Origin: Acidimicrobiia bacterium
Lineage (GTDB): Bacteria; Actinomycetota; Acidimicrobiia; Spongiisociales; ZC4RG35
Length of the DNA: 51,344 bases
NCBI GenBank assembly: GCA_040905965.1
Contig: JBBDQP010000007.1
Coordinates: 8,042 to 59,385, forward strand
Direction of reading: 5' to 3'
Shown here: piece by piece, positions 22,499-49,198 of the stretch
Position numbering within the stretch: the first letter of the stretch is position 1
Layout: every line of letters starts with the position of its first letter
The notes under the pieces: model-generated
Told to the model about the DNA's origin: nothing
Seen by the model: only the letters and a program-made list of their open reading frames with translations
The model's database searches: none
Position numbers and translations under genes: made by a program

Positions 22499-22545
22499 TG
22501 TCGCCCGTCCGACGGTCGATCTTGGCCACCCCCCGGCTCGACGTT
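22499..22545 (+). promoter_or_regulatory. TGTCG-N6-CGAC box + N28 + GTT promoter
   Basis: TGTCGcccgtcCGACG 22499-22514; GTT 22543-22545; in-frame GTG at 22555. Confidence 0.65.
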
Positions 22546-22554
22546 GGTGTGACG

Positions 22555-23709
22555 GTGGTCTTCGTGAGAATTGTCATGGTGCTGAGCCTTCTCGCCGTCT
22601 CTTGTTCGGCCGGCGGAACAGAAGGGGTGGCCTTCGAAACATTCGGAGTGCTGCCCGCCGGTCCGTCCGCCCTGGACGACCCGGAGCATCCTGACCTGCC
22701 AACTCCGACCATTCCGCCGGCAGACCTGGTCTCAGGGGGACCGCCTCCCGACGGGATCCCGTCGATTGACGAGCCGCGTTTTCGCAGCATCGCCGATGCT
22801 GAGCTGTCGCTCGCCGACACCGAGCCTGTGATCGTTGTGGACATCGAAGGCGACGTCAGGGCGTATCCGATTGAGATCTTGATCTGGCACGAGATCGTCA
22901 ACGACGTCGTCGGGGGAGTGCCGGTGGCGGTGACGTACTGCCCGCTGTGCAACAGCGCAGTCACCTTCGAACGCCGAATCAACGGCGTCGACGTCACCTT
23001 TGGGACGTCGGGCCAGCTCTACGCCTCGGCATTGGTGATGTACGACCGGGAGACTGAGAGTCTGTGGACCCACTTCGACGGCCGCGCCATCGCCGGGGTG
23101 CTGGCCGGGCATCGTCTGGAGCCGGTCCCGTCGCCGTTGTTGGCGTGGAGCGAGTTCAAGAAGGCTCACCCCGAAGGCCAGGTGTTGAGTCGTGAAACCG
23201 GGTTCGATCGTCAATACGGCCGGAACCCCTATTACGGGTACGACAACCCCGACACCCGTCCCCGCTTTCTGCGGGGTGAAGTCGACGATCGCGCCCGTGT
23301 CAAACAGCGAGTGGTGGGAATCTCCGTCGATGGGGCCGCAGTTGCGTTTCCCCTGGAAGAAGTCAGTGGTGGTGAGGCGAAGGTGACGTCGGCAACGGTG
23401 GGGGAGATGCCGGTTGCCGTCTTCTGGGTGGCCGGACAGAACAGCGCCCTGGAGGACGCCGACACGTCCAAGGGCAGGGATGTCGGCTCTGTCGGCGTCT
23501 TCCGGCCCGAGGCGGACGGTCGAGCCTTGTCATTTCGGGCGGAGGGCCCGACATTCGTAGACGCCGAGACCTCGAGTACTTGGAACATCACCGGTCGGGC
23601 GATCTCCGGATCGTTGGAAGGAGCTCGGCTCGTCGCCGTCCCCCACCTGGACACCTTCTGGTTCGCCTGGTCGACGTATCAGCCGGAAACGACGCTGTTC
23701 GGGAGTTGA
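22555..23709 (+). CDS. DUF3179 domain-containing lipoprotein (copy 2)
   Basis: LAVSC lipobox, SGGPPPDGIPSID, AYPIEILIWHEIVND, TYCPLCNS, TFWFAW. Confidence 0.9.
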   Translation: MVFVRIVMVLSLLAVSCSAGGTEGVAFETFGVLPAGPSALDDPEHPDLPTPTIPPADLVSGGPPPDGIPSIDEPRFRSIADAELSLADTEPVIVVDIEGDVRAYPIEILIWHEIVNDVVGGVPVAVTYCPLCNSAVTFERRINGVDVTFGTSGQLYASALVMYDRETESLWTHFDGRAIAGVLAGHRLEPVPSPLLAWSEFKKAHPEGQVLSRETGFDRQYGRNPYYGYDNPDTRPRFLRGEVDDRARVKQRVVGISVDGAAVAFPLEEVSGGEAKVTSATVGEMPVAVFWVAGQNSALEDADTSKGRDVGSVGVFRPEADGRALSFRAEGPTFVDAETSSTWNITGRAISGSLEGARLVAVPHLDTFWFAWSTYQPETTLFGS

Positions 23710-24932
23710 GGGGCGACGGAAGACGGTTCTGTCAGCGGGATCCGCAGTTCGAACCCGGCTGCGGGTCCGAGGTATCGGACGGTGCCGCCATGCCGAATCG
23801 CCAGCTCCCGGACAACGGTCAGACCCAAACCGAGTCCAGGCTCTGACATCGTTGCGTTGGCCACCAACCGTACGTACGGGTCGAACGCTCTCGCTGCGTC
23901 CTGTCCGTTCAGTCCGGGACCGGCGTCGGAGACGACGCATCGGAACCATTCGCCGTCCCGGCTCCCGACCACCGCCACGGGCGCCTCCCCATACCTGAGA
24001 GCATTGTCGACGAGGTTGCGGATCATCTGGGTGAGACGCAGTGGATCGGCTTGCATCACGATGTCCGTGTCGACGTCGATTGCGACGTCGACCGCGGTCG
24101 GTCCCATGCCTCTGACGGTCGTCTCGACGACGGACGCGGGGTGGACGGACTCCAGCCTCACCGAAAATTCTCCCGCTTCGATGCGATTGAACGTGATCAG
24201 GTCTTCGACCAAGGTGTGCATCTCCTCGGTCTGGCTGACCACGAGACCGAGGTATTCGGTTCGTTCCGAGTCCGGCAGGTCACGTTCGAGGAGCAGTTGA
24301 GAGAACCCTCGCAGCGCGGTGAGCGGAGTCCGCAGCTGGTGGCTGGCAGTTGCCAAGAAGCTGTCCTTCAGGCGATGAAGTTCATGCTGACGCTCGAGGT
24401 CGGCTGCCAAGGCTTCTCTGCCTGCGTGCAGTGAGTCGGCGATGTGGACCATGAGTGCACCGACTGCGACCAGCAGGATCGCCTGGATGGCGAGGCCGGC
24501 GAAGAACTCTCCGTCCGGTATCGGGTCGGGAGGATGAAAGAACGGCAAAGTCATCCTGCCCGACAGGACGTGGAGACCGGCCTCGGCGGCGATGGTGAGG
24601 AAGGCGGCCACGAGCAACATGCGTGCCCGGACTGAGGGCAACAGCAGTGGACCGAGCGAGACGACGACATAGGGGATGAAGTTGGCTCCCGAGACGGGGC
24701 CGAACAGCCACCACAGGCTGAGGGCGAGGACCAGATCGCAAGCGAGCACCGCGGTCATGGAGATCGGCGTGCGGGTGAGAACTGCTCCTGCAGCGAGAAG
24801 TGCCACCGTCGGCCACGCCCGGACTCCGATGGACGGAGCGAGGACCAATACCGCCACCATCGCCAGCAAGAGAACGCCGCTGTGAAGGCGACGAACGCGT
24901 ATCTCGAGGGAATCGTGGGGCTGGACCATCAT
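23679..24932 (-). CDS. Membrane sensor histidine kinase (orphan)
   Basis: Multi-TM N-terminus; ASHQLRTPL, LVDNALRYG, DAGPG, GLGLGL; start uncertain (24932-24965). Confidence 0.88.
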   Translation of the reverse strand: MMVQPHDSLEIRVRRLHSGVLLLAMVAVLVLAPSIGVRAWPTVALLAAGAVLTRTPISMTAVLACDLVLALSLWWLFGPVSGANFIPYVVVSLGPLLLPSVRARMLLVAAFLTIAAEAGLHVLSGRMTLPFFHPPDPIPDGEFFAGLAIQAILLVAVGALMVHIADSLHAGREALAADLERQHELHRLKDSFLATASHQLRTPLTALRGFSQLLLERDLPDSERTEYLGLVVSQTEEMHTLVEDLITFNRIEAGEFSVRLESVHPASVVETTVRGMGPTAVDVAIDVDTDIVMQADPLRLTQMIRNLVDNALRYGEAPVAVVGSRDGEWFRCVVSDAGPGLNGQDAARAFDPYVRLVANATMSEPGLGLGLTVVRELAIRHGGTVRYLGPAAGFELRIPLTEPSSVAPQLPNSVVSG

Positions 24933-24942
24933 CTGTTCTATC

Positions 24943-25029
24943 GGTCGGCTGTGTGACGGGCTCAAGCGCTGCTGTACAGACCAACGGGTTGTGGCGTGTT
25001 TCGCATGGAGGATGGACGGATATCCGACA
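24943..25029. promoter_or_regulatory. Two boxes in divergent region (24943-24958, 25014-25029)
   Basis: GGTCGgctgtgTGACG (GTT at N29 on +) and GGACGgatatcCGACA (GTT at N28 on -, ending 24983). Confidence 0.5.
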
Positions 25030-25395
25030 TCTCGGGGTGAGAGTCGGTCGCTGGTGGTTGTTCACGCCGTGCTCATACGACGATGTGTCTCCGCGGCCGC
25101 ATTCTCGGTTCTCTGGATCGTGGCTGCCGTACTCACCCCCGATGTGACCTTTCACCTGGCTCCGGTGATCGTCGCCGCGGCTCCCGCTTTTGCAGGACGG
25201 GGTCGACCTATTCTCTGGGGCGTCGTCGGCTTCGTCCTCGCCAGTGGCATCTCGGTGGCCCTGGCCCTCTCGGGGTTTCTCGACGGTCCTTCGCTTCTCC
25301 CGGTGGGAGGACCTCTGCTCGAGTCCATCGTCGGCGCGCTGGTAGGCGCTGTTGTCGGTGGTCTCTTCGACGGGCGGGTGACGGCGTCGGATTGA
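24991..25395 (+). CDS. Small hypothetical membrane protein (true start probably downstream)
   Basis: Three or four hydrophobic segments. Confidence 0.5.
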   Translation: MACFAWRMDGYPTSRGESRSLVVVHAVLIRRCVSAAAFSVLWIVAAVLTPDVTFHLAPVIVAAAPAFAGRGRPILWGVVGFVLASGISVALALSGFLDGPSLLPVGGPLLESIVGALVGAVVGGLFDGRVTASD

Positions 25396-27211: not shown

Positions 27212-27227
27212 TGTCGGGTCTACGACG
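27212..27227. promoter_or_regulatory. TGTCG-N6-CGAC box between divergent genes
   Basis: TGTCGggtctaCGACG; no GTT at N28 on either strand. Confidence 0.45.
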
Positions 27228-28332: not shown

Positions 28333-30318
28333 ATGGCAACCGACGCTGCCCCATCCACCGAGCCGGTCGAGCATCCTGAGGACGAGGACTGGTCCTGGCA
28401 CCGCCTGATCACCGCCGATGAATTGCCTGAAGGTCGTGTCACCACTGTGACCGTCGGGAGGCGGGCGCTGGCGGTCACCCACTATGACGGCTGCTTCGGC
28501 GCACTCGACAATCATTGTCCTCATCAGGGTGGTCCGCTGGGCGAGGGCTCGATCGAAAACGGCTGGTTGAGGTGCCCGTGGCACGGCTACGACTATTCCC
28601 CCTGCAACGGGACGCCGCCGCCCGGCTTCGACGACGGGCCGATCGCCTATCCGACCGAGGTTCGAGACGACGGGGTCTATGTCGCTCTGCCCCCTGAAAC
28701 CGAGCACGATCGCACGGTCTCGGATGTGCTGGTCGAGACCATGACGGCGTGGGGGGTCACGGAGGTGTTCGGCATGGTCGGACACTCGAACCTCGGATTC
28801 GCCGAAGCCATGCGCCGGGCCGAGGCCCGAGGTGACCTGCGCTACTTCGGGATCCGGCACGAGGGGGCGGCATCGTTCGCGGCGTCGGCCTACGGCAAAC
28901 TCACGGGTCGCCCCGCCGCGTGTTTCGGCATCGCCGGCCCCGGCTCGACCAATCTGTTGACCGGGCTGTACGACGCCAAACGGGACATGGCTCCGGTGCT
29001 GGCGATCTCGGGACAGGTTGCGTCGAGCGTGAAAGGGCGCGGAGCTTTCCAGGATCTCGATCTCGAAGCGCTGTTCGCCGATGTCGCTGCTTTCTCCGAG
29101 ACGGTGTACTCGCATTCGGATCATGCCGAGCTGATGACGCTGGCGTGCAAACGGGCGATCATTGATCAGACCGTCACCCATCTGATGCTCCCCGACGAAG
29201 TGCAGGTCCTTGGCGCGGAAGACTCCGAACCCGGTTCCGCCGATGGACGCACCGCCATCGATCGCACCACTCCCGAAGCCGAAAGTCTGCAAAGCGCAGT
29301 TGAGCGCGTCCAGGGGGCAGAACGTCCGGTGATCGTGGTGGGTGCGGGCGCCCGCTTCGACATGGCACCCATCGTCGAGTTGGCCGAGCGACTCGGGTCC
29401 CCTGTCGTGACGACCTTCAAAGCGAAAGGTCAGATCTCCGATCACCACCCGCTCGGCTGCGGAGTGCTCGGTCGAAGTGGCACGCCGATGGCGAGCTGGT
29501 TCATGAACGAAGCCGATCTGTTGATCGTCTTTGGGGCGTCATTTTCCAACCACACCGGGATCGCCCCTTACAAGCCGATCGTCCAAGTGGACCGCGACCC
29601 GTGGGCAATCGGTCGCCATCACTCCGTCGACGTGGGTGTGATCGGCGATGTCGGCGTCACCGCTGGGAAGATCCTTGCGTCTCTCGGTGACGGCGACTGG
29701 GTCGATCAGCGGTCGGAAGTGGCCGAGCGATGGCAGATCTGGCGAACCGAGAAGGAACGTCGTCGCACCGATGATCGGGGGAGGGGCGTGGACTCGGCTT
29801 CGATCTTCCACACGCTCGGCTCGGCTATCGATTCAGACGCAGTGGTGTGTGTCGACGTCGGCAACAACACCTATTCGTTCGGGCGTTACTTCGAAGCAAC
29901 CGAACAGTCGGTGCTCATGTCCGGTTACCTGGGATCGATCGGCTTCGGATTTCCCGCCGCGTTGGGCGCCTGGGCTGCCGTCGGCGACCACCGACAAGTG
30001 GTGGCGGTCTGCGGTGACGGCGGGTTCGGGCAGTACGCCATGGAGATGACGACCGCCGTCAAATACGGGATGAACATCACCTGCGTGCTCCTGGTCAACG
30101 ACGAGTTGGGAAAGATCAGCAAGGAGCAGCGTTCTGCCGAATACGACGTGTGGCAGACGTCACTCCACAACCCCGATTTCGCCGAGTTCGCCCGGTCATG
30201 CGGAGCCAAGGGCATCCGCGTGCATGACAGGTCCGAACTCGACGAGGCCATTTCCGAGGCGCTGTCCCACGACGGACCAGCCTTGGTCGAGATCCTCACC
30301 GACCCCGGACTGGTCTGA
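28333..30318 (+). CDS. Rieske [2Fe-2S]-fused thiamine-diphosphate enzyme (pyruvate oxidase/AHAS-like)
   Basis: CPHQG...CPWH Rieske motifs; IRHEGAA, GPGSTN, GDGGF...ND ThDP motif. Confidence 0.9.
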   Translation: MATDAAPSTEPVEHPEDEDWSWHRLITADELPEGRVTTVTVGRRALAVTHYDGCFGALDNHCPHQGGPLGEGSIENGWLRCPWHGYDYSPCNGTPPPGFDDGPIAYPTEVRDDGVYVALPPETEHDRTVSDVLVETMTAWGVTEVFGMVGHSNLGFAEAMRRAEARGDLRYFGIRHEGAASFAASAYGKLTGRPAACFGIAGPGSTNLLTGLYDAKRDMAPVLAISGQVASSVKGRGAFQDLDLEALFADVAAFSETVYSHSDHAELMTLACKRAIIDQTVTHLMLPDEVQVLGAEDSEPGSADGRTAIDRTTPEAESLQSAVERVQGAERPVIVVGAGARFDMAPIVELAERLGSPVVTTFKAKGQISDHHPLGCGVLGRSGTPMASWFMNEADLLIVFGASFSNHTGIAPYKPIVQVDRDPWAIGRHHSVDVGVIGDVGVTAGKILASLGDGDWVDQRSEVAERWQIWRTEKERRRTDDRGRGVDSASIFHTLGSAIDSDAVVCVDVGNNTYSFGRYFEATEQSVLMSGYLGSIGFGFPAALGAWAAVGDHRQVVAVCGDGGFGQYAMEMTTAVKYGMNITCVLLVNDELGKISKEQRSAEYDVWQTSLHNPDFAEFARSCGAKGIRVHDRSELDEAISEALSHDGPALVEILTDPGLV

Positions 30319-30343: not shown

Positions 30344-30390
30344 TGTCGTCCAGCCGACAGACCGGCGATCGAAGCCCACGTTGACGGGTT
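30344..30390 (+). promoter_or_regulatory. TGTCG-N6-CGACA box + N28 + GTT promoter
   Basis: TGTCGtccagcCGACA; GTT ends 30390; ATG at 30400. Confidence 0.7.
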
Positions 30391-30399: not shown

Positions 30400-31275
30400 A
30401 TGACAGAGGTGACCGCAGTCTTCGAAGGTGGCGGGGTGAAAGGAATCGCGCTGGCCGGCGCTGCGGCGGCTGCCATGGAGCGTGGCATCCGTCTCACCTC
30501 GGCGGTCGGCACATCGGCCGGCGCGTTGGTGGCGTCACTCGTGGTCGCCGGGTATGGACCCGACGATCTGGAGCGAATCGTCTGCGAGATGCCATGGTCG
30601 CGCATCACCGATCGGCGGCCGTTGGCCCGTATTCCAGTCGTCGGGCCGCATATTGCGATGCTGACTTCGGGCGGTGTGGCCCGAGGGCGGCGATTGGAAC
30701 GAGAAGTCTTTCGATTGCTCGCTCGACGGGACGTTCGCGTCTTCGGAGACCTCCCACCAGGGGCATTGCGGGTGGTCGCCACCGATCTGGTGCATGGCCG
30801 AGGCGTCGTTCTGCCCGACGACCTTCCCCAGTACGGGATCGACCCAGTGCGCTTCCCGGTCGCCAGAGCAGTTCGGGCGTCGTCCGCCGTTCCCTTCGTC
30901 TTCGAGCCGGTCATCATTCGGAGCCAGGCCACGGGCGAGGAGATCGTCCTCGCCGATGGAGCCCTCGCCGCCCGTTTTCCTCTGCAACTTGTCGAACCGG
31001 GAACACCCACATTGGGTTTCCGGCTGACGCCTACCGATGAGCTACATGAGGATCACCGGATCCGAGGGCCCCTTTCCCTTGCTCGTTCCGTAGTGGCGGC
31101 AGGAATGACAGCCCGGGAGTCACTTCCGGTCTTGTGTCGCGACCTCGGGTCGACGATTGCGATTCAGGTGGATCGGGCTCCGCTCGACTTCGACCTCGAT
31201 GCCAATGAGGCGAACGCGATGTTCAGGCGGGCACATCATGAGGCGCTCGATCAACTCGACTCCATCAGGCTCTGA
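30400..31275 (+). CDS. Patatin-like phospholipase
   Basis: FEGGGVKG, GTSAG, ASSAVP, DGA motifs. Confidence 0.92.
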   Translation: MTEVTAVFEGGGVKGIALAGAAAAAMERGIRLTSAVGTSAGALVASLVVAGYGPDDLERIVCEMPWSRITDRRPLARIPVVGPHIAMLTSGGVARGRRLEREVFRLLARRDVRVFGDLPPGALRVVATDLVHGRGVVLPDDLPQYGIDPVRFPVARAVRASSAVPFVFEPVIIRSQATGEEIVLADGALAARFPLQLVEPGTPTLGFRLTPTDELHEDHRIRGPLSLARSVVAAGMTARESLPVLCRDLGSTIAIQVDRAPLDFDLDANEANAMFRRAHHEALDQLDSIRL

Positions 31276-39289: not shown

Positions 39290-39795
39290 ACCAGGGCTCC
39301 GTACACGAGGGCTGCGATCAGTCCGTAGACGACGTGGCCAACGATCAGTCCCATCGGGGTCATGGCACCCCAGCGCGCTCCGAAGAACCCTGGTGCACTC
39401 AGGACGACAGTGCCATCCGATGTGTCTACGGCGGGCCCGTCGGAGTCAGCGGTCATGCGAGGGTGCATGGCGGGCATCATCGGCATGCCGATCGCCCCGA
39501 CTACGACGCCGTGAGCGGCCCCGATGAGGATGCCGGTCAAGACGGAAGACGAACCAAACGCGGTGAAGAGTGCGCCGTATGCGATCCCGAAGACGATGGT
39601 TCCCAACACTACGTAGTGGATCATGGCTCCGATGCGTCGTGCCCGATCGGGGTCTCCGCTCATCATCGCCCCGGTGACCAATGTCATCGGAGGCATCCTG
39701 GTCATCCCGGCGGATGCGGACATGGTCATCATGGCCGACATCACCAGCGTGGCGACCAGTCCGGCAACCAGGGCCGGGAACAATTCGAACGTCAT
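39286..39795 (-). CDS. Met/His-rich membrane protein
   Basis: 4 TMs with conserved-looking His (IHYV, AHGV, GHVVYG); GAGGAG RBS. Confidence 0.75.
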   Translation of the reverse strand: MTFELFPALVAGLVATLVMSAMMTMSASAGMTRMPPMTLVTGAMMSGDPDRARRIGAMIHYVVLGTIVFGIAYGALFTAFGSSSVLTGILIGAAHGVVVGAIGMPMMPAMHPRMTADSDGPAVDTSDGTVVLSAPGFFGARWGAMTPMGLIVGHVVYGLIAALVYGALV

Positions 39796-39823: not shown

Positions 39824-40684
39824 TCAACCGTTCGAATGCTCGGAGGCCTCCCACTCTGTCGGGGAGCCGACCTTTGCGCTCCTGCCCCACAGCCATCCGA
39901 GGATGGCGATCGCTCCAATGACAACTGCGACGAGTCCGGCGTTGTCTGCCAAGAATCCGGTCACGGACGCCGAGGTGCGATCGATCCAGCGGACCAGTCC
40001 GGTCGAACCCAAGGCGACGCCACCGCCGGAAAGGATCGTCGCCCAATACCAGACGATGAACACACCAGCGACCGTCATCACCAGGCCCGAGATGGTGTCC
40101 ATGTGGCGCGCCAGACTTCGAATCTTCGCCAGAACTGTCTTCTTCCCACCCGCCACGACGAACGTCACGCCCGTGACTGCGGTTGCCATTCCCGCTCCGT
40201 AGGCGGTGAATGCGAGGACCGATGTCGACAGAGCTTCTGCGGACACGATTCCACCGACCAGGCTGAGAAAGATAGGGAGCGTGCAGGACAGCGAGGCGAT
40301 GGCGTAGGACACGCCGAAGACAAACATGCCTCCCACCGAGCCGCTCTTGCGGGCCCGTGAAACACCTGGGACGGTGGGGAGCAGTCGGCGTCCGAGAAGC
40401 TGGGCGATTCCGACCACGATGAGGCCCAGTCCGACTGCCAGCGCCAGCCACGGGATGGCATCGACCACCGCTCGGAGTCCAAACGAGATGAGCGCCCCCG
40501 CCACCGTGAACACCACCAGAAACCCCGATGCCACCGAGAGTGCGACGACTCCGGTGCGCTCCACCCGACGCTCCGCGCCGTCGCCGAGGAAGAACCCGAG
40601 GTAGGCCGGGAGCATGGCGAAGCCACATGGATTGACGGTGGCAACCATGCCTGCGGCGAAGGCGGTGGAGAGGAGTGCAGTCAT
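39824..40684 (-). CDS. ccdA: CcdA-like cytochrome c biogenesis / thiol-redox membrane protein
   Basis: VNPCGFAMLPAYL and SLSCTLPIF motifs. Confidence 0.88.
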   Translation of the reverse strand: MTALLSTAFAAGMVATVNPCGFAMLPAYLGFFLGDGAERRVERTGVVALSVASGFLVVFTVAGALISFGLRAVVDAIPWLALAVGLGLIVVGIAQLLGRRLLPTVPGVSRARKSGSVGGMFVFGVSYAIASLSCTLPIFLSLVGGIVSAEALSTSVLAFTAYGAGMATAVTGVTFVVAGGKKTVLAKIRSLARHMDTISGLVMTVAGVFIVWYWATILSGGGVALGSTGLVRWIDRTSASVTGFLADNAGLVAVVIGAIAILGWLWGRSAKVGSPTEWEASEHSNG

Positions 40685-40694: not shown

Positions 40695-40741
40695 AACGCT
40701 CAGCAACGACGAGTGAAGCGTTGATGGTCGCACATCCGACG
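40695..40741 (-). promoter_or_regulatory. Box + N28 + GTT promoter for the ccdA operon
   Basis: GGTCGcacatcCGACG 40726-40741; minus-strand GTT ends 40695; ATG 40684. Confidence 0.65.
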
Positions 40742-40742: not shown

Positions 40743-41486
40743 TCAGCTCTCGACTGGCGGGTCGGCGAGTTGGGCCTGGGAGATGTCGACAACGTCCGAT
40801 GTGGCGAACAGTCCGAGGGTGTCGAGGCCGAAATGATCACGCCAGAGTGCCGCGGGAACCGCGATGTCGGCGAGGAGCAACGTGGTGTCGGATGGCAGGC
40901 GCACGAATCCCGACTTCGGAAGGGCGAGCGTGAGGATCACATCCGGCCCCACGACGGCGCCGGGCGATTCACCCGTAGTGGCGTCGCTTCCCGAGGGAAC
41001 GTCGAGGGAGATGACTGTTGACGCCGAGGCATTCATCCAGTCGATCAGCTCGGCTGCTCGTCCGGTGGGTGCGTCGGTGAGTCCGTATCCGATGAGACCG
41101 TCGACGATCACCGCGCCCGGTTCAGACGGCAGCCGGGTGGACGGGCGGCTTCCGATGGCTTCGAGCGACGTCGCTTGGTGAGCGGCGGCGCCAGTGAGAC
41201 GCCCGGGCTCTCGATCTAGCACGGTCGTCACATCGAACCCGAAACCTCGCAGCCTGCGAGCGGCCGCCATCGCTCCGCCTCCGTTACCGCCTCCCCCTGC
41301 GACGACAGTCACAGGGGGAGGCGACGAGTCGAGACGATCCTGGGCGATGCGGGCCAGCGCCCGGCCCGCCAGTTCCATCATCTGGAGGAGATCGATGCCG
41401 TACGGCCCTGTGGCCAGACGATCTGCCTCTGCCATCTGATCGGCGGTGACAGTCGGTACCCCTCCTGTGAACTGTGGGGCTATCAC
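40743..41486 (-). CDS. nnrE: NAD(P)H-hydrate epimerase (stand-alone YjeF_N)
   Basis: MMELAG, GGGGNGG, IVDGLIGYG, SLDVPSG, LADIAVP; start approximate. Confidence 0.85.
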   Translation of the reverse strand: MIAPQFTGGVPTVTADQMAEADRLATGPYGIDLLQMMELAGRALARIAQDRLDSSPPPVTVVAGGGGNGGGAMAAARRLRGFGFDVTTVLDREPGRLTGAAAHQATSLEAIGSRPSTRLPSEPGAVIVDGLIGYGLTDAPTGRAAELIDWMNASASTVISLDVPSGSDATTGESPGAVVGPDVILTLALPKSGFVRLPSDTTLLLADIAVPAALWRDHFGLDTLGLFATSDVVDISQAQLADPPVES

Positions 41487-41499: not shown

Positions 41500-41546
41500 T
41501 GTCGGACACCCGACACAATCGACGGTCGAGTTCTCTCCCCGACGTT
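41500..41546 (+). promoter_or_regulatory. Perfect TGTCG-N6-CGACA box + N28 + GTT promoter
   Basis: TGTCGgacaccCGACA; GTT ends 41546; ATG 41556. Confidence 0.75.
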
Positions 41547-41555: not shown

Positions 41556-42341
41556 ATGACAGAGTCCACATCACCCAATGTTCTGAGCGCCGGATGGTCG
41601 ATCCTCACGTCCCTCATCCGTGTTCGCGCTCCAAGGCCGCACGGCGACGCGACCGTCGACCACTCCCGCTTCGGCAAAGTTCTCGAGTCGTTGCAGGGCG
41701 ACGTGATCGGCCGTCTTCCTGCCGCCGGCGAGGAACTGGCCGTGTATCTGGACGAGATGGAATCGGTCGATCCCGACACGCTCACCGTCGGCGAGTCGCT
41801 GGCGTTCTGGATCAACGTGTACAACGCGGCTGCCCTCAGATTGGGAGCGGACGCGGCGCGGGACGGTGTCCCCACGGTGTTCGGAATCCCCGGTGGCTTC
41901 ACCTCGCCGACTGTGACAATCGCCGGCGAGGCGCTCTCGCTGGACCAGATCGAACACGCCAAGGTGCGACGGTTCGGAGACCCTCGCATCCACGCCGGGC
42001 TGGTGTGTGGCGCGATGTCATGTCCGACGTTGCGACGTGAGCCGTTCGCCGGTGACGTCGACGCCCAACTCGACGACCAGATGCGTCGTTTTCTGACGGA
42101 CGGGGCATTGGTCATCGTCGAGGCGGAAAACCGCGTGATGCTCTCGTCGATTTTCGCCTGGTTCGGGAGAGATTTCGTCAAGCCCCACCGCATGCCCACG
42201 CTGCTGCCTGCTCGCCGGCGGACCGTGTTGGCGGCGCTCACGCCGTGGATGGACAACGATGCTGCGTCGTGGATTGAAGGCGCGAATCCGACCATCAGCT
42301 TCTCCAGTTACGACTGGCGACTCGGTTGTGCCATCGCCTGA
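41556..42341 (+). CDS. DUF547 domain-containing protein
   Basis: LAFWINVYNA, LSLDQIEH, DPRIHAGLVCGAMSCP, SSIFAWF, YDWRL. Confidence 0.9.
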   Translation: MTESTSPNVLSAGWSILTSLIRVRAPRPHGDATVDHSRFGKVLESLQGDVIGRLPAAGEELAVYLDEMESVDPDTLTVGESLAFWINVYNAAALRLGADAARDGVPTVFGIPGGFTSPTVTIAGEALSLDQIEHAKVRRFGDPRIHAGLVCGAMSCPTLRREPFAGDVDAQLDDQMRRFLTDGALVIVEAENRVMLSSIFAWFGRDFVKPHRMPTLLPARRRTVLAALTPWMDNDAASWIEGANPTISFSSYDWRLGCAIA

Positions 42342-42949
42342 CGGGCATCGGCACCGGAGCGTCTTCGCACGCCGAACGTGAGCGTGGTGATGGCGATGAC
42401 GGCGGCCGCCATGTCGTAGGGGAGGATGTAGCGCCACATGGCGTCACCGTCGACGAGCCATCCGCCTGCCGGGGTGTATCCGACCGCATTCAGATAGGTC
42501 GCCACCGACCACACACAGACGACAACGATCATTCCACCCGCCGCCCAGCCGGCGATCCGTCCGGCTGCGAGCCTTGCTCCGATTGCGGTCGCACCGGCGA
42601 CCCAGGCGATGTCGAGTGCCGAGAGGAGTTGCAGGAATTGCATGGACGGATCGAGGCGCAGTGCGGCCGAAGACGCCAGGGTCACGAGTGCGACGGCCCC
42701 GGTCGCCAGCACCACCAGCGAGACGGCAGATCCGAAGAGGCTCGCCTGCGGACTGAGCCCGCTGAACCACGGGGTGTCGAGTTCTTCCACCAATGCCATG
42801 GTCAGCACCAGTCCGTAGGCGACCAGAACCGTCAAATGGAACAGGATCCATAGAGTCGATCCATGCGGCGTGGGCAGAGCGAGGAGCAGCGGGGTGCCGA
42901 CCAGCCCGGCGATCAACCACCGAATCGACCGGCCGACCGCCCGTTCCAT
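42308..42949 (-). CDS. Hypothetical multi-pass membrane protein
   Basis: About 6 hydrophobic segments; start coupled to upstream stop. Confidence 0.65.
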   Translation of the reverse strand: MERAVGRSIRWLIAGLVGTPLLLALPTPHGSTLWILFHLTVLVAYGLVLTMALVEELDTPWFSGLSPQASLFGSAVSLVVLATGAVALVTLASSAALRLDPSMQFLQLLSALDIAWVAGATAIGARLAAGRIAGWAAGGMIVVVCVWSVATYLNAVGYTPAGGWLVDGDAMWRYILPYDMAAAVIAITTLTFGVRRRSGADARQAMAQPSRQS

Positions 42950-44370
42950 CACAGGAATTCGTGACCGAATTCGTCCCGGTACGCCTCGAGCAACCGCAGC
43001 CACACTTCGCTCAGTGTCGGGAATGACGGCACCGCGTGCCACAGGGTGTCGAGCGGAACCTCGCCCACTATCGCGATCGTTGCACTGTGGAGGATCTCAC
43101 CGACCTGCGGACCGACGAAGGTCGCACCAACCAGCGTGTGAGTGTCGGCGTTCACAACCAAGGTGCAGGTTCCGCGATACCCCTTGCCGAGGGTGGCGGC
43201 ACCGGCCGTGTGGCCGATGTCGTAGGAGACGGTTCGCACGTTGAGGCCAGCCTCCTTCGCCGCCGCGGTGGTCATACCGACCGCCGCGACCTGAGGGTTG
43301 GTGAAAACGACTCGTGGTGTCGCCTTCGTATCTCCCCACGCCGACGTCTTCGCCCCTGCGATGTGGGCACCTGCCACCCGCGCCTGGTACTTGCCGGTGT
43401 GAGTGAGGAGGGAGCGGGCGTTGACGTCGCCGACGGCGTACAGCCAGTCCCCTTCGACTCCGGTGACCAGCAAGTGATCGTCGACATCGACGTACTTCCC
43501 GTCTTCGAGTCCGACACTGCTCAGTCCGATGTCCGCCGTGTTGGGCTTTCGGCCGGTCGCGACGAGAAGTTCGTCTGCCTCTATCGACACTTCGGAGCCG
43601 TCGGAGAGTGTCACGTCGATCGTCACCGGCCCGTCGGTGCCTTCGCGGCGCACCTCGGTGGTGTTGGCTTCGGTGTGGACCGTGATTCCGATACGTTCGA
43701 ACGATTTCCGGAGTTCTTCTCCGACAAACGGCTCTTCCACCGCCAGGAGGCGGTCGCCGAGTTCGATGATCGTGACTTCCTCGCTGCCGAGTGTCTTCCA
43801 CGCCTGGGCCATCTCCGCCCCCACGACTCCTCCTCCGATGATCAGCAGTCGACGGGGGACCTCCTTGGCAGTGGTCACATCCCGACTGTCCCATGCGCCG
43901 ACATCAGAGAGTCCCGGGATGGGAGGCATCGAGGCGGAAGTTCCGGTTGCGAGGATCACGCCTTTGGTCGCCACGAACCGGTCGACGGAGCCATCCGTCT
44001 GTTCGACCTCGACCGCGCGTTCTCCGACGAGGCGGCCGTGCCCGCGCAACAGCGTCACGCCCACGCCCTCCAGCCAGGACACCTGACCTTCGTCGTCCCA
44101 GTTTCCCGCCAGAGCATTGCGACGGGCGAGAGCGTCATCGATGTCGATTGTTCCGCCGGTGAAGCCGGGAGTGCGCCCGGCGGCATCGAGCACGTCTCCG
44201 GGTCTTAGAAGCGCCTTGGAAGGCATGCATGCCCAGTACGAACATTCCCCTCCGACGAGTTCTCGCTCGACGATGGCGGTCGAGAGGCCATGGCGTACCG
44301 CCACATCGGCGGCATTCTCACCGGCCGGTCCTGCTCCGAGGACGATGACGTCGAATTGCTGTTCGGACAT
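42949..44370 (-). CDS. Pyridine nucleotide-disulfide oxidoreductase (Lpd-like)
   Basis: GAGPAGE, GGECSYWACMPSK, GGGVVGAE, HAVPSFPT. Confidence 0.92.
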   Translation of the reverse strand: MSEQQFDVIVLGAGPAGENAADVAVRHGLSTAIVERELVGGECSYWACMPSKALLRPGDVLDAAGRTPGFTGGTIDIDDALARRNALAGNWDDEGQVSWLEGVGVTLLRGHGRLVGERAVEVEQTDGSVDRFVATKGVILATGTSASMPPIPGLSDVGAWDSRDVTTAKEVPRRLLIIGGGVVGAEMAQAWKTLGSEEVTIIELGDRLLAVEEPFVGEELRKSFERIGITVHTEANTTEVRREGTDGPVTIDVTLSDGSEVSIEADELLVATGRKPNTADIGLSSVGLEDGKYVDVDDHLLVTGVEGDWLYAVGDVNARSLLTHTGKYQARVAGAHIAGAKTSAWGDTKATPRVVFTNPQVAAVGMTTAAAKEAGLNVRTVSYDIGHTAGAATLGKGYRGTCTLVVNADTHTLVGATFVGPQVGEILHSATIAIVGEVPLDTLWHAVPSFPTLSEVWLRLLEAYRDEFGHEFL

Positions 44371-44401: not shown

Positions 44402-44539
44402 AACAGACGGCGATACCACCGCGATGTCAGATCGTCAGCCACCCGACAGTCTGGTTGGCCTGCTTCGGCAGGGAGTTGCGCGACCGATGAACCGTCGGCT
44501 CTCCGACACTGGGACCGAACTTCTGGCTTTCGGTCGGTT
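44402..44539. promoter_or_regulatory. Two divergent box + N28 + GTT promoters
   Basis: CGTCAgccaccCGACA 44433-44448 (minus GTT ends 44402); CGTCGgctctcCGACA 44493-44508 (plus GTT ends 44539). Confidence 0.7.
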
Positions 44540-44584: not shown

Positions 44585-44869
44585 ATGGCGAAGAAGGCGA
44601 CACTGGGCGATGTGACTCTGGCCGAGGCAGACGAGGTGGTATCGGTGGAGGGCAACGCGTACTTTCCTCCGGAGACCATCCACTGGGACCATCTGACCGA
44701 GAGCGACCACACGACGGTGTGCCCTTGGAAGGGACAGGCGAGCTACTTCGACGCTGTGATCGACGGGGAGACCTATCGCAACGTCGGCTGGACCTATCGC
44801 ACGCCGAGCGACAAGGCGAAGGCGATCACCGGCCACGTCGCATTCTGGGGCAAGGTCAAGGTCACCTGA
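44585..44869 (+). CDS. DUF427 domain-containing protein
   Basis: VEGNAYFPP, TVCPWKGQASY, WTYRTP, HVAFW. Confidence 0.92.
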   Translation: MAKKATLGDVTLAEADEVVSVEGNAYFPPETIHWDHLTESDHTTVCPWKGQASYFDAVIDGETYRNVGWTYRTPSDKAKAITGHVAFWGKVKVT

Positions 44870-44875: not shown

Positions 44876-45094
44876 TCAGTGGAGCGTCCTGAGCGCCATG
44901 AAGGCGACGGCCAGGAGCGTCGCTCCGGTCACGAGAAGGCGAGCATCGGCATGATGTCTCGTCAGGTACAGCCCGATGGCAGAGATCGACAGGATGGCGA
45001 CCACCTGGATGGCCACTCCGGCGTCGGTGGTTGGAAGCAAGAAATCGATGAGGTTCACGACATGTCCTCCAATGAGAAGCAAAACCGGGACCAC
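44876..45094 (-). CDS. Small hypothetical membrane protein
   Basis: Two TM segments; start uncertain (GTG near 45061 after GGAGGA also plausible). Confidence 0.45.
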   Translation of the reverse strand: MVPVLLLIGGHVVNLIDFLLPTTDAGVAIQVVAILSISAIGLYLTRHHADARLLVTGATLLAVAFMALRTLH

Positions 45095-45113: not shown

Positions 45114-45160
45114 GGTCGGATTGCCGACAGTCGGCGAGCACGCGGCCTGCCGGCATCGTT
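45114..45160 (+). promoter_or_regulatory. Box + N28 + GTT promoter for DUF3179-tlpA-crp
   Basis: GGTCGgattgcCGACA; GTT ends 45160; ATG 45170. Confidence 0.7.
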
Positions 45161-45169: not shown

Positions 45170-46405
45170 ATGAAGCTGAGATACGGGATCGTACTGATAG
45201 CCCTGGTTGCGTCCGCCTGCTCCGGAGGGGCTGTGTCGGAAAGCACCGAGGCGGCCGAGCCGGACCCGGCGACCACGACCACATCTGAGGCGCTCGAAGA
45301 ACCGACGGCGACCCTGCCTCCGGTCGAGCTCCCTGCGGACGGCTTTCCCGAAGGGGACTCTGCACTCGATGACATGACTGCCGACAGCTTCCCCCCGCCA
45401 CTGATCGATGTCGAAGAGATCATCTCGGGCGGCCCGCCGCCTGATGGAATCCCGCCGGTGGACGAGCCGGTGTTCACCGACGTCGCTTCGGCTGACGAGT
45501 ATCTGAGCGATGAGGAGCCCGTGGTCGTCCTGGACATCGATGGTGACGCCCGCGCCTATCCGATCCAGATCATGATTTGGCACGAGATCGTCAACGACGT
45601 CGTCGGAGATGTACCGGTCTCCGTCACCTACTGCCCCCTGTGCAACAGCGCTGTTTCTTATGTGCGCACCATTGGCGGACACGAAACGACCTTCGGTACG
45701 TCCGGTCGTCTCTTTGCCTCCGCTCTCGTCATGTATGACAGGGCGACCGAGACACTGTGGACGCATTTCGACGGGAAGGCCGTCGTGGGCGTGCTCACCG
45801 GACACCGGCTCGAGCCTGTTGCCTCCCCGCTGCTGTCGTGGGCGGACTTCAAAGAGGCCTACCCAGACGGGAAGGTGCTCGATCGGGACGAGACCGGATT
45901 CGGGCGGCCGTACGGCAACAACCCGTACCAGGGCTATGACAACCCCAGTTCCTTCCCCTTCCTCTTCACCGGAGACGTCGACGATCGCTCCCGGGCGATG
46001 CAGCGGGTGGTCGGAGTCCGAGACGGCGACGATGCCCGCGCCTGGACGCTCGATGTGATCTCTGGCGAAACGGCCGCTGTGACCAACACCGAAGTCGGAG
46101 ACACCGAACTGGCGATCTTTTGGTCGGCCGGGCAGTCGAGCGCGTTGGAGTCTCTCCAGACGGCGTCCGGACGCGATGTCGGATCGGTGGGCGTATTCTC
46201 GCCGGTCATCGACGGTCGGACCTTGACGTTCACCGCGGCGGATGGCGCGTACCTCGATGAACAGACCGGCTCGACGTGGAATATCACCGGTCGAGCGGTC
46301 GACGGCGAACTGGCGGGATCACAACTCGAGCGAATTCCGCATCTGGACACGTTCTGGTTCGCCTGGTCGACCTATGCCCCCGGCACCGACCTGATCGAGG
46401 AGTGA
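45170..46405 (+). CDS. DUF3179 domain-containing lipoprotein (copy 3)
   Basis: VASAC lipobox, SGGPPPDGIP, TYCPLCNS, TFWFAW; close paralog of copy 2. Confidence 0.92.
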   Translation: MKLRYGIVLIALVASACSGGAVSESTEAAEPDPATTTTSEALEEPTATLPPVELPADGFPEGDSALDDMTADSFPPPLIDVEEIISGGPPPDGIPPVDEPVFTDVASADEYLSDEEPVVVLDIDGDARAYPIQIMIWHEIVNDVVGDVPVSVTYCPLCNSAVSYVRTIGGHETTFGTSGRLFASALVMYDRATETLWTHFDGKAVVGVLTGHRLEPVASPLLSWADFKEAYPDGKVLDRDETGFGRPYGNNPYQGYDNPSSFPFLFTGDVDDRSRAMQRVVGVRDGDDARAWTLDVISGETAAVTNTEVGDTELAIFWSAGQSSALESLQTASGRDVGSVGVFSPVIDGRTLTFTAADGAYLDEQTGSTWNITGRAVDGELAGSQLERIPHLDTFWFAWSTYAPGTDLIEE

Positions 46406-46406: not shown

Positions 46407-46931
46407 ATGGAACGTCGGCGCAAGCTGATCGTCGCCGCTGCGGGGGTCGTGGTCCTCGTCGTCGGGCTCGCCGCCTTCTGGCCCACCGGAGACGACGCCG
46501 GAGCATCCTCCCAGTCCGCCTCGCAACTCGACGTTCCGTTCCAGTTCGTCGACGGGTCCGATGCAAACCTCGCCGACTTCGCCGGCAAGCCTCTCGTCGT
46601 CAACTTCTGGGCCTCCTGGTGTCCTGCGTGCGTGGCGGAGATGCCCGACTTCGAACAGGTTCACGCCGCACTCGGCGACCAGGTGGTCTTCTTAGGCATG
46701 AACATGCAGGAGACCGACGCGCAGGCGGCGGATGCGCTCGTCGACCAGACCGGTGTCAGCTATCAGCTCGGGCTCGACCCTGACGGTCGGATCTTCAACA
46801 CCTTTGGTGGTATCGCCATGCCGACGACGGTGTTCATCGACGCAGACGGAAATGTGGTGAAGACCCACGCCGGTGCGATCTTCGCCGAAGATCTCGAGGA
46901 GATGATCCGGACTGAACTGCTGGCGTCGTGA
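46407..46931 (+). CDS. TlpA-family membrane-anchored disulfide reductase
   Basis: VVNFWASWCPACVAEMP, MPTTVFID. Confidence 0.92.
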   Translation: MERRRKLIVAAAGVVVLVVGLAAFWPTGDDAGASSQSASQLDVPFQFVDGSDANLADFAGKPLVVNFWASWCPACVAEMPDFEQVHAALGDQVVFLGMNMQETDAQAADALVDQTGVSYQLGLDPDGRIFNTFGGIAMPTTVFIDADGNVVKTHAGAIFAEDLEEMIRTELLAS

Positions 46932-46984: not shown

Positions 46985-47686
46985 ATGCTCGATCTCCCTG
47001 ACCTCGCTGCCGATCAACACCTGGCATGGCTGGCTCGTAGCTTCGGGCGTCCCGACTACCTCCCCCTGACCGCATCCGATCTCGAAGTGCTCGCAGGGTC
47101 GGCTGAACTGGTGAAGAGGTTCCGCGGATCACACCTGTTCCGCCAGGGCGAACCCGCAGTGGCGGCGTATCTGGTCAGGGAAGGCCAGGTCGACATCTAC
47201 CGCGACCACTCGGGCTCGCAGACCGTCGTCGCCCGGGTCGGACCGGGGTCGGTGATCGGCGACATCGCCATGTTCGGCGAAGGCGTGTACAAGTCGTCGG
47301 TGCGAGCGGTCGATCACGTCAGGGCCTTCCGATTCGACCGTGAGAAGTTGCTTCCCGAACTGGCCAGACATCCGTCCATCTGCCTGCGCTGGCTGGTCTC
47401 TGGCCTGAACCAGTTGGAGCGGACCCAGCGCCGGATCATCAGCCTCATGCACAAGACGGTGCTGGCACAGGTGGCGGATCTGCTGGCAGAGGAGGCCGCA
47501 ACCCTCCGGAAGGTTCCCCTCTCCCAAGCTTCGATCGCCACGCTGCTGGGCGTGAGTCGTCAGTCCGTGAACGAGGCTCTCGGAGAATTGCGGGAGCAGA
47601 AGATCGTCGAAACCGGATATCGGATGATCGAGGTGCTCGACTTGGAGCGTCTGCAAGCCGTGGCGTCAGACCAGCCTTTGGACTGA
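46985..47686 (+). CDS. Crp/Fnr-family transcriptional regulator
   Basis: LFRQGEP, VGPGSVIGDIA cNMP-like domain; HTH LSQASIATLLGVSRQSVNEAL. Confidence 0.92.
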   Translation: MLDLPDLAADQHLAWLARSFGRPDYLPLTASDLEVLAGSAELVKRFRGSHLFRQGEPAVAAYLVREGQVDIYRDHSGSQTVVARVGPGSVIGDIAMFGEGVYKSSVRAVDHVRAFRFDREKLLPELARHPSICLRWLVSGLNQLERTQRRIISLMHKTVLAQVADLLAEEAATLRKVPLSQASIATLLGVSRQSVNEALGELREQKIVETGYRMIEVLDLERLQAVASDQPLD

Positions 47687-47694
47687 CCCGGGTC

Positions 47695-48477
47695 TCAGCC
47701 TTCGAAGATTGCTACTTCGACGGCTCCCGTGTTTCCGCCCGTGGACGACTCCACTTCGAAGGTGACGATCTGGCCGGTGAATGAGACTTCGACCGGATCG
47801 GCGCCGGCCGGGAAAGGACCGAAGGTCGCCCCGTCGACGACGACGTTGAACGTCTCTGTGATCGACGAGCCGTCACCCATGGATCGGGTGCGGAAGAGGA
47901 CTGCGGTGGCGTCGACGACCCGTCCCAAGTCGATGGTCACGAACGCGTCGTCACCGTCACCCTGCGACGACCACTCTGTGCCCAGGTCCCCGTCGACGGC
48001 GTTGGCGGCGGTGAAGTCGTGAGAGAACTCTGAGGAGACATTGATCACAGCCGCACCGATGGCGACGTTCTCACCGAAGCGCGTCAGCGCCTCGTCGGCC
48101 GCGGGAGTCGTGAAGGTCAACACTTCGCTTCGGTAAAGGTTTCCGTCTGCGGCCACGCCCTGCAGCCGATATTGATAGGTGGTCTCTGGTTCGAGGCCGG
48201 TCATGACGGCGGCGTGGTCGCTGTGTCCTCCGACCCCCATGTCCTGGTCCGTGGCGATAGAGCCCGATGGGCCGTCGATTCCGTAGGCGACGGCGCAGAC
48301 GGCATCGAGATTGGTGGTCACGTTCAGCGTGGCGACCGTTCCCGACGGATCGAAGACGATCTGCGGGTCGGCGACGGCGATCTCCGAGAACGGAAGAACC
48401 TCTGTGTCCGCACTGCTCCCGCACGCCGCGACCACGAGCGCCGTTGCGACTGCGAGCAGCATTGTGGTGCGTGACAT
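47695..48477 (-). CDS. Lipoprotein with Fn3-like and discoidin (F5/8) domains
   Basis: VVAAC lipobox; GLEPETTYQYR; NAVDGDLGTEWSS..VTIDLG. Confidence 0.8.
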   Translation of the reverse strand: MSRTTMLLAVATALVVAACGSSADTEVLPFSEIAVADPQIVFDPSGTVATLNVTTNLDAVCAVAYGIDGPSGSIATDQDMGVGGHSDHAAVMTGLEPETTYQYRLQGVAADGNLYRSEVLTFTTPAADEALTRFGENVAIGAAVINVSSEFSHDFTAANAVDGDLGTEWSSQGDGDDAFVTIDLGRVVDATAVLFRTRSMGDGSSITETFNVVVDGATFGPFPAGADPVEVSFTGQIVTFEVESSTGGNTGAVEVAIFEG

Positions 48478-49049
48478 CAGCGTGGCACCAGGGTCCGCTT
48501 GAACTCGTTCATCTCGTGCCAGTCCAGCATTTCCAGCGCCCTATCGAGGTCGTCGACCGCTCCACGGTTCATGAACCGGATGAACGTCGCCACGTCGTTG
48601 CGGATGAAGGTGGGGACGCCGAACACGCTCCATCGTTCCACCGCCTCGGTGTGCTCTCTGGCAAGCGTCGAAGTGTCGGCGTCGGTGTGGACGATCTCTG
48701 CGAGCTTTCCGACATCGACGCCGACCGAAGCCAGCGCCTGGCGGATCACGTCCTCGTCTCCCAGGTCCAACCCGTGATCATGTCGAGCCGCAAAGAGAGC
48801 GACGTGCGCATGTGCGAAGTGTTGGGGCTGATGATCGCGGACCGCGACGCCCCAGTGGAGAGCGCGCACCCCGGGTGCGGTGACATCCGAGAACACCGTG
48901 GCATCGCCTTCCTCCACGTGTGCCTGTGACAGCGAGAAGGGGCGGAAGCCGACGTTCCAATCCCGCCCGGCGCAGAGACCGGCGAGAACCGCCTCGTTGG
49001 CGTTGCGGGCGAATGGGCAGAGATAGTCGAATGTGATCTCGAATTGCAT
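48477..49049 (-). CDS. DsbA/Rv2466c-like thioredoxin-fold protein
   Basis: FDYLCPFA, VFGVPTF. Confidence 0.82.
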   Translation of the reverse strand: MQFEITFDYLCPFARNANEAVLAGLCAGRDWNVGFRPFSLSQAHVEEGDATVFSDVTAPGVRALHWGVAVRDHQPQHFAHAHVALFAARHDHGLDLGDEDVIRQALASVGVDVGKLAEIVHTDADTSTLAREHTEAVERWSVFGVPTFIRNDVATFIRFMNRGAVDDLDRALEMLDWHEMNEFKRTLVPR

Positions 49050-49198
49050 GGGGGGAGAACTCCGGTTTTCAGGTGTTGTCGTGCTTGTGACCTACCCATA
49101 AACCTGTCCGGATCATCCCGAATTAGCGAAAACGTCCTTGGTCCGACACTCTTTCTGTCGGCGTGCCGGGGTGATGGCCGCAGCGCGCAGAACCCCGT

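Follow-up and report, generated by a model that had tools for sequence, protein, structure and literature searches.

Composite promoters with a fixed-distance Cmr-type box in a redox gene island of an uncultured sediment actinobacterium

How does a compact island of redox and envelope genes come to share promoters that carry a palindromic box and, at a constant distance from it, a GTT trinucleotide, and which proteins would read such promoters? The question is raised by a 51,344-nucleotide (nt) stretch of DNA, hereafter the window, from an uncultured sediment actinobacterium of the Acidimicrobiia (assembly GCA_040905965.1, contig JBBDQP010000007.1; contig C7 of genome G000 in our set, positions 8042-59385). 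The same DNA was found in metagenome runs from sediment and soil, all of them DNA; no RNA run was among those found. The assembly comprises 2.43 Mb in 112 contigs, with 64.8% G+C and 94% completeness; genes were called with a simple codon-usage model and annotated with Pfam and NCBIfam. A preliminary description of the window had listed 13 boxes of the form TGTCG-N6-CGACA, many followed after exactly 28 nt (N28) by GTT, and had proposed that a Crp/Fnr-family activator encoded nearby acts on them together with an extracytoplasmic function (ECF) sigma factor. The regulon itself proved to be real: a genome scan, the spacing at related loci and presence/absence counts across genomes show that it is conserved, restricted to the island at 22-49 kb of the window, and tied to the local Crp/Fnr gene. 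The identity of the sigma factor is a separate matter, on which the evidence is divided.

Composite promoters in the window and in related genomes

A pattern scan of the window recovered all 13 boxes. GTT stands at exactly N28 at each of the nine for which this had been claimed (22499, 30344, 32855, 41500, 44493 and 45114 on the plus strand; 25014, 40726 and 44433 on the minus strand), and at N29 at the two where that spacing had been given (24943, plus; 49133, minus). Beyond this list we found a tenth N28 site, at 39857-39872 on the minus strand, and second promoters on the opposite strand at four boxes, with N28 at 22499(-) and 45114(-) and N27 at 25014(+) and 41500(-). Some of these opposite-side promoters face plausible genes absent from our first gene call, namely a lipoprotein-like open reading frame (ORF) of 153 amino acids (aa) and an ORF of ~60 aa. 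Three of the 13 boxes fall outside the architecture: 27212 and 32830, which have no GTT at N27-29, and probably 24943. The resulting regulon has ~11 promoters and ~20 genes. As had been noted, at five sites a start codon follows closely, 9 nt after GTT at 22499(+), 30344(+), 41500(+) and 45114(+) and 10 nt after it at 40726(-). Start codons in this position mean that several of the island's mRNAs are probably leaderless.

The composite pattern, defined as TGTCGG-N4-CCGACA, N28, GTT, is far more frequent in the window than in shuffled DNA. Allowing up to two mismatches, we counted 14 matches, against a mean of 0.21 in 100 shuffles (standard deviation 0.43, largest 2). Across the whole genome, 16 boxes lie within one mismatch of TGTCGG-N4-CCGACA, six of them in the window; when GTT at N28 is added, five remain, and all five are in the window. 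On the other 111 contigs there is no N28 peak or excess of GTT after CCGACA. The system is confined to this island in this assembly.

Conservation in relatives points the same way. Orthologs of the island's regulator, with 54-100% identity, are present in 21 of 41 related genomes (G000 counted), and we collected 20 orthologous loci from 17 other ortholog-bearing genomes, 271 kb altogether. Following the boxes at these 20 loci, GTT occurs at N28 in 34 cases, at N29 in 10 and at N27 in 3, with no other spacing seen more than twice. Orthologous promoters of different genera have 28-nt spacers unrelated to one another, while box and GTT, and the ATG nine bases on, stay fixed, for example upstream of the DUF547 and DUF3179 genes. 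A pattern conserved in this way is functional. From 38 non-redundant sites we derived an extended palindrome, A-N-TGTCGG-N4-CCGACA-N-T. A G directly follows GTT in 26/38 sites, a purine lies 9 nt after GTT in 31/38, and in 12/38 this position begins an ATG or GTG; the rest of the spacer has no further conservation. A hidden -35 element was considered and ruled out, since matches to GGAAY 17-19 nt before GTT are no better at these 38 sites than in shuffled spacers. The box promoters are without a -35 element.

The pattern also follows the regulator across genomes. With at most one mismatch, we found 51 composite matches in the 21 genomes that have an ortholog and 8 in the 20 that do not; a reversed-pattern control gave 19 matches over all 41. 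Leaving out two unpublished genomes, G027 and G038, the count is 48 matches in 19 ortholog-bearing genomes. Because the genomes are related to one another, this link between regulator and pattern is an association rather than the outcome of a formal test.

The local regulator and its likeness to Cmr

The regulator in the island belongs to the Crp/Fnr superfamily (PF00027, E 2.4e-18; PF13545, E 2.4e-14), and its recognition helix reads GVSRQSVNEAL, in agreement with the preliminary description. No second protein of this genome matches it across both domains. It very likely binds the boxes, and it is predicted to control its own operon from box 10. The best relative among solved structures is Cmr (Rv1675c) of Mycobacterium tuberculosis (5w5a/5w5b, E 4e-28, query residues 8-226), at ~30% identity. 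The alignment spans the N-terminal extension that the two proteins have in common, and an N-terminal motif is kept in all 36 aligned Cmr-like proteins. The Arg that usually contacts cyclic AMP (cAMP) is absent from Cmr and from the window's regulator alike; in the alignment the latter has VYKSS where CRP-Mt has PRTSS.

The preliminary description had set the helix and the box beside those of CooA-type Crp proteins. The CooA consensus TGTCGGCNNGCCGACA, given for Rhodospirillum rubrum and Desulfovibrio, fits the box and is almost the same palindrome (PMC545781). The nearest characterized relative of the protein, however, is Cmr and not CooA. Membership in the CooA group was rejected: no CooA chain appears in the best 60 of 79 solved-structure matches, and the island's annotated genes include none of the coo (CO dehydrogenase) genes that CooA, a heme-based CO sensor, controls.

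The published Cmr motif already explains the box, which has both its required and its discriminating bases. Cmr recognizes a 16-bp motif, TGTC-N8-GACA or more fully TGTCA-N6-(C/T)GACA, in which 2G, 3T, 14A and 15C are required and 4C and 13G discriminate Cmr sites from CRP sites (PMC4705688, PMC5758884). Our predicted sites have G, T and C at positions 2-4 and G at 13 in 38/38 cases, A14 in 36/38 and C15 in 37/38. The systems differ in the half-site, TGTCG here and TGTCA for Cmr, and in the helix, RQS here and RPS in Cmr. In the 36-protein alignment, R-Q-S is found in 23/23 proteins from the window's order, and R-P-S in the Corynebacteriales Cmr clade and two distant lineages, whose boxes read TGTCA...TGACA.

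Cmr, like the regulon described here, is linked to peroxiredoxin-like and thiol-disulfide genes, in the cmr-rv1676/dsbF region. A single Cmr site activates the divergent promoters of cmr (transcription start site TSS2) and rv1676 in vitro, without cAMP (PMC5499769), and divergent activation from one site is what we propose for the bidirectional boxes here. In scale the two differ, as 368 Cmr binding sites are reported in BCG whereas the present regulon is compact and local. Within the portions of the Cmr literature consulted, no fixed distance from box to promoter and no GTT element is described.

To see how far the architecture reaches, we sampled 301 genomes of the phylum. Close orthologs occur only in the window's order, and Cmr-like proteins with 28-35% identity occur in 15 other genomes. 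At eight distant loci (~33% identity), 5/7 perfect-core boxes have GTT at N27-28, and at one of these loci, L051, 3/3 do. A scan with the published Cmr 16-mer hit at least 120 loci; among the matches listed, five adjoin a Cmr-like gene (Corynebacteriales, Pseudonocardiales), and on the side that faces away from cmr the five read GTT at N28 (in Mycolicibacterium pyrenivorans, ahead of an operon that holds an AhpC-TSA_2 gene), GTT at N27, GTG twice and ATT. As a control, the 116 Cmr 16-mers without a Cmr-like neighbor among the matches listed have GTT at N28 on 0/232 strands. A family-level search found Cmr orthologs in 4/61 genomes and added three loci, one with GTT at N29, one with TAGCGT (a TANNNT-type hexamer) at N30 and one without a box. 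The window's order keeps the spacing strictly, some distant lineages show it, and in Corynebacteriales it is loose. Separately, two mycobacterial loci (L083, 3113-3159; L174, ~1588-1634) carry tandem Cmr-type boxes, their starts 31 bp apart, between cmr and a divergent operon.

Sigma factor and proposed mechanism

The island's promoters do not look like those of the housekeeping sigma factor. We surveyed the 697 genes that have no Shine-Dalgarno match and an upstream gap of at least 40 nt, and found TANNNT at four distances from the start codon: it ends 6 nt ahead in 60 instances, 7 nt in 66, 8 nt in 48 and 9 nt in 30. TANNNT is clearly this genome's housekeeping -10, and the island promoters are without it. 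With ~200 instances of TANNNT 6-9 nt before a start, leaderless organization is itself widespread in the genome.

The placement of GTT instead matches promoters of the SigH/SigE type, which have the form GGAA(T/C)-N17-19-GTT and place GGAAC's fifth base at -31 (PMC10012870, PMC4803200). With GGAAC at -35 to -31 and a spacer of N18, GTT falls at -12 to -10 and +1 on the tenth nt after it (PMC10012870); in the island the start codon lies on the tenth or eleventh base after GTT. Promoters of SigH, SigR and SigE share with those described here the GTT at -12 to -10, often followed by G, the distance to +1 (predicted for the box promoters), and thiol or redox targets. They differ in having a GGAAY -35, where the box promoters have an activator box upstream instead. 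Within the island, GGAA(T/C) 17-19 nt before GTT occurs only at two divergent promoters without boxes (35481-35556), for which the full GGAA(C/T)-N18/19-GTT and the same offset to the start were confirmed. Elsewhere in the genome, canonical GGAAY-N18/19-GTT promoters with a start codon 8-10 nt after GTT lie, among other places, ahead of the genes for a thioredoxin, a DsbA-like protein and a CoA-binding protein.

A candidate for the sigma factor is encoded on contig C106, where a protein matches the SigH_actino model at 250.1 bits (cut-off 251.55). Its gene is followed by a 77-aa ORF with HVEECPPC, the HxxxCxxC mark of RshA/RsrA-type anti-sigma factors. The frame upstream of the SigH-like gene (L041, ~1300-1400) translates like read-through of a tRNA gene, and a tRNA may adjoin sigH. 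The canonical promoters and the SigH/anti-sigma gene pair bear out the suggestion that a SigH-type sigma is available for the promoters, and we lean toward a SigH/SigE-type factor as the one that reads them. The idea of ECF promoters with a degenerate -35 fares less evenly: the GTT fits an ECF -10, no -35 is detectable at the box promoters, and the partner sigma is one that we infer.

We propose that a dimer of the locally encoded Cmr-like Crp/Fnr-family protein binds the boxes, each of which would lie at a fixed distance upstream of a -35-less promoter whose sole conserved element is GTT(G) at -12 to -10. With +1 taken as the tenth base after GTT, the box would span -56 to -41 and the dimer would be centered at about -48.5, just upstream of the expected position of sigma region 4. 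There it may replace the missing -35 contact, its promoter-proximal subunit touching the polymerase, and recruit or position a holoenzyme containing a SigH-like (or SigE-like) sigma factor. Transcription would start 10 nt after GTT, in many cases at the first base (A or G) of the start codon, giving a leaderless mRNA. As the site is palindromic, one dimer could serve promoters on both sides. A distance fixed to within one base, the lack of a -35 and the two-sided use fit an activator that contacts polymerase, and on this geometry activation is the likely outcome of binding rather than repression. The regulon would encode envelope thiol-disulfide and oxidative-damage functions and include the regulator's own operon. 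We give the full reading, in which a Cmr-like activator near -48.5 recruits a SigH/SigE-type holoenzyme, a probability of about one half.

The proposal has partial precedents. At class II CRP/FNR promoters a Crp-family dimer sits at or just upstream of a poor -35, at a strict distance; there the dimer is centered at -41.5, overlaps the -35 and works with the primary sigma, whereas here it would be centered at about -48.5, without overlap, and work with a presumed ECF sigma. Pseudomonas algD with AlgU and mycobacterial PhoP with SigE provide ECF promoters that also need activators, pairing a transcription factor with an ECF holoenzyme as we propose. Those promoters keep a recognizable ECF -35, and their activators are not known to be Crp-family proteins held at a constant spacing. 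What we describe would join a known regulator family and a known -10 in a composite promoter that is -35-less, fixed in distance and often bidirectional. A limited literature search found no description of this promoter type and no link between Cmr and SigH or SigE, which does not prove that such a link is unpublished.

Several observations weigh against the proposal. ECF sigma factors usually make strict demands on the -35, and an ECF promoter without one would be unusual. Class II and class I CRP positions are -41.5 and -61.5, and -48.5 matches neither. The window's contig has no sigma gene (no Sigma70_r2 match), and the SigH model matches nearly all relatives (38/41 genomes at E 1e-50 or better, G000 included), so that the presence of SigH does not discriminate. 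In the window, the loose box alone (TGTCG-N6-CGACA, up to two mismatches) shows no enrichment, at 58 matches where 51 are expected; given the enrichment of the composite, it is the combination, and the best boxes, that carry the signal. Three boxes depart from the architecture. The 16-mer at 27212 probably lies outside the system. The box at 32830, a good one, lies 25 bp upstream of box 4; the transporter gene of the formate/nitrite family (31940-32809, -) has its called start 20 nt away. The weak box at 24943 sits downstream of the point where the kinase transcript is predicted to begin. Cmr's redox-reactive Cys36 and Cys131 and its Arg-rich loop (R93-R96), which gives extra DNA contacts, are not kept either: neither Cys is a Cys in the window's protein, and the stretch aligned with the Arg-loop is SGSQ. 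The signal sensed by Cmr is therefore not transferable to this regulator. Another single Cys, Cys133, is present in 17/23 proteins from the window's order, and several orthologs from other genera have RRR or RR at the Arg-loop position.

The remaining points against it come from Cmr itself. Its activation was assayed with native M. smegmatis holoenzyme (PMC5499769), and the published activation therefore does not single out a sigma factor. Corynebacteriales cmr loci show GTT once each at N28, N27 and N29, GTG twice, ATT once and TAGCGT at N30 once, and a Cmr-type activator there may work with another sigma factor. Of all the evidence, this looseness speaks most strongly against tying Cmr-type regulators to ECF sigma factors universally.

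The same evidence feeds the best-placed alternative, in which the regulator and boxes are as described and the housekeeping sigma, or another non-ECF sigma, reads the promoters. GTT would then be a weak or unusual -10 or an element of the initiation region, and the activator would make up for a poor -10 as well as for the missing -35. Cmr activated two promoters with native mycobacterial holoenzyme to which no stress sigma had been added (PMC5499769), the hexamer at N30 of one Corynebacteriales cmr locus is of the TANNNT type, and the window's contig is without a sigma gene. Against this, TANNNT, so clearly the -10 of the genome, is in none of the window's promoters, the one element conserved across the 38 sites is GTT(G), and canonical GGAAY-N18/19-GTT promoters of the same genome share the distance from GTT to the start. 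We regard this alternative as unlikely.

A different GTT-type ECF sigma, encoded elsewhere in the genome or in the ~6% that is unassembled, could take the place of SigH. The genome has 22 Sigma70_r2 matches, several of which match the SigH model weakly, and SigE-type factors use GTT too (PMC10012870). One further sigma factor, on contig C66, comes with an anti-sigma gene. No sigma gene adjoins the regulon, however. Dedicated ECF sigma genes usually adjoin the regulons they serve. An ECF sigma on contig C111 was tried as a dedicated partner and rejected for want of co-occurrence with the regulator: it is present in the regulator-less genomes G001 and G003 and was not found in the regulator-bearing G004, G006 and G010. 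On balance a different ECF partner seems quite improbable.

The boxes might alternatively be operators, at which the Cmr-like protein represses GTT promoters that would be constitutive without it, until a signal frees them. Cmr does also act as a repressor, at cmr TSS1 and dosR (PMC5499769), and the boxes at 24943, downstream of a predicted transcript start, and 32830, close to a start codon, would suit such a role. The boxes of the composite promoters, though, lie upstream of the -35 position and do not cover the core promoter, their spacing varies by no more than one base on either side of the palindrome, as fits polymerase contact, and without a -35 there is nothing to make these promoters constitutive when the activator is absent. 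Repression as the general mode is thus very unlikely. Chance, or copies of one repeat element, is of negligible probability: the loose box alone is at background, but the composite stands at 14 against 0.21 expected and is kept in other genera with diverged spacers, and a repeat origin was ruled out because the spacers are not homologous to one another.

Sites, neighboring genes and implications

The proposed activator-dependent promoters and the genes behind them are set out in Table 1. Genes in the island include three for DUF3179 proteins, one for an orphan histidine kinase, and those for a patatin-like lipase, DUF1684 and a transporter of the formate/nitrite family. There are also a MerR gene beside a MerA-like reductase, AhpD-like and DUF6789 genes and a CcdA/DsbD-like membrane protein, and the island further has YjeF_N, DUF547, a second pyridine nucleotide-disulfide oxidoreductase, DUF427, a ResA/TlpA-like redoxin, the Crp/Fnr-family regulator and a DsbA-like protein.

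Table 1. Boxes, promoters and associated genes in the island (window coordinates; N, nt between box and GTT)
Feature	Position	Strand or side	Box sequence	GTT and spacing	Following genes and remarks
Box 1	22499-22514	+	TGTCGCCCGTCCGACG	22543-22545, N28	Apparently bidirectional; GTG 22555, probably leaderless, DUF3179 gene ending 23709
Box 1		-		22468-22470, N28	ATG 22457, 153-aa lipoprotein-like ORF 21996-22457 (-), start 10 nt past GTT
Weak box	24943-24958	+	GGTCGGCTGTGTGACG	24988-24990, N29	No convincing gene start behind
Box 2	25014-25029	-		24983-24985, N28	~40-nt leader, histidine kinase gene 23679-24932 (-)
Box 2		+		25057-25059, N27	GTG 25069, 108-aa ORF ending 25395
Box-like 16-mer	27212-27227			None at N27-29	Inside called coding region
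Box 3	30344-30359	+		30388-30390, N28	ATG 30400, probably leaderless; patatin-like phospholipase 30400-31275, DUF1684 31280-31900
Box	32830-32845		TGTCGGGTCCCTGACA	None at N27-29, either strand	Good box
Box 4	32855-32870	+		32899-32901, N28	Short leader with AGGAGG; ORFs 32940-33857 and 33854-34513, no Pfam matches
Box-less promoter, GGAAT-N19-GTTG	35481-35508	-			GTT-N9-start, GTG 35472, acyltransferase gene
Box-less promoter, GGAAC-N18-GTTG	35530-35556	+			Canonical SigH-type, probably leaderless; GTT-N9-start, ATG 35565, 232-aa protein 35565-36263 (+), C-terminus resembles glycine/sarcosine/betaine reductase component B (GRDB)
Box 5	39857-39872	-		39826-39828, N28	Inside 3' end of DsbD_TM gene; leader with GAGGAG, DUF6789 39286-39795, AhpD/CMD-like 38732-39289
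Box 6	40726-40741	-		40695-40697, N28	ATG 40684 after 10 nt, CcdA/DsbD-like membrane protein 39824-40684
Box 7	41500-41515	+	TGTCGGACACCCGACA	41544-41546, N28	Perfect match; ATG 41556, probably leaderless, DUF547 41556-42341
Box 7		-		41470-41472, N27	Faces YjeF_N / NAD(P)HX epimerase-like gene 40743-41486 (start uncertain)
Box 8	44433-44448	-		44402-44404, N28	Leader with GAGGGAG; class-I pyridine nucleotide-disulfide oxidoreductase 42949-44370, 214-aa ORF 42308-42952
Box 9	44493-44508	+		44537-44539, N28	Leader with AAGGAG, DUF427 44585-44869
Box 10	45114-45129	+		45158-45160, N28	Apparently bidirectional; ATG 45170, probably leaderless; operon DUF3179 45170-46405, ResA/TlpA-like redoxin 46407-46931, Cmr-like regulator 46985-47686
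Box 10		-		45083-45085, N28	Faces ~60-aa ORF 44876-45058 (-), two hydrophobic stretches
Regulator P0001	46985-47686	+			233 aa; cNMP_binding and HTH_Crp_2
Box 11, degenerate	49133-49148	-		49101-49103, N29	Leader; DsbA-like 48477-49049, gene with F5/8-type-C domain 47695-48462

Some neighboring features are worth recording in their own right. Three DUF3179 paralogs lie within 25 kb, at 20959-22038 (-), 22555-23709 (+) and 45170-46405 (+); two of the three stand directly behind Cmr-type box promoters, and one shares an operon with the ResA/TlpA-like redoxin and the regulator. At 36562-38697, a 100-aa ORF and a 459-aa MerA-like/FAD-containing disulfide oxidoreductase stand divergent to a MerR-family gene (-); the oxidoreductase scores under every NCBIfam cut-off. 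This unit resembles a mercury or thiol-stress module and is without a Cmr-type box. The gene at 28333-30318 (+) encodes a 661-aa protein that joins an N-terminal Rieske [2Fe-2S] domain to a whole thiamine-pyrophosphate enzyme with N, M and C domains, an uncommon domain combination. Outside the island, a 254-nt direct repeat of 94% identity, at 8742-8995 and 14724-14977, flanks a segment of ~6 kb, and a canonical promoter, GGAAC-N18-GTTG at 14990-15016, comes directly after the end of its second copy.

The usual description of ECF sigma factors is of self-sufficient switches reading strict two-part promoters. Promoters that keep only an ECF-type -10 and rely on a Crp-family activator in place of the -35 would add a second layer of control to such regulons, with a geometry, at -48.5 and bidirectional, outside the textbook classes of activators. 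The arrangement also gives a concrete idea of how Cmr-type regulators may activate, a family whose best-known member is poorly understood. A wider proposal can be made, possible but doubtful as things stand, that Cmr-family Crp proteins across Actinomycetota are dedicated co-activators of SigH/SigE-type ECF sigma factors, held rigidly at -48.5 in place of the -35 and driving leaderless transcription in one or both directions. If true, this would define a distinct class of activator-dependent ECF promoter that also covers the mycobacterial cmr-rv1676 region. Thiol and envelope redox genes would then depend on two signals, the anti-sigma factor relaying one and the Cmr-like sensor the other. In the island itself, DUF3179, DUF547, DUF427, DUF6789 and DUF1684 would be co-regulated with CcdA/DsbD-, ResA/TlpA-, DsbA- and AhpD-like proteins, and this association with thiol proteins points those DUF families toward functions in the envelope thiol and oxidative-damage response.

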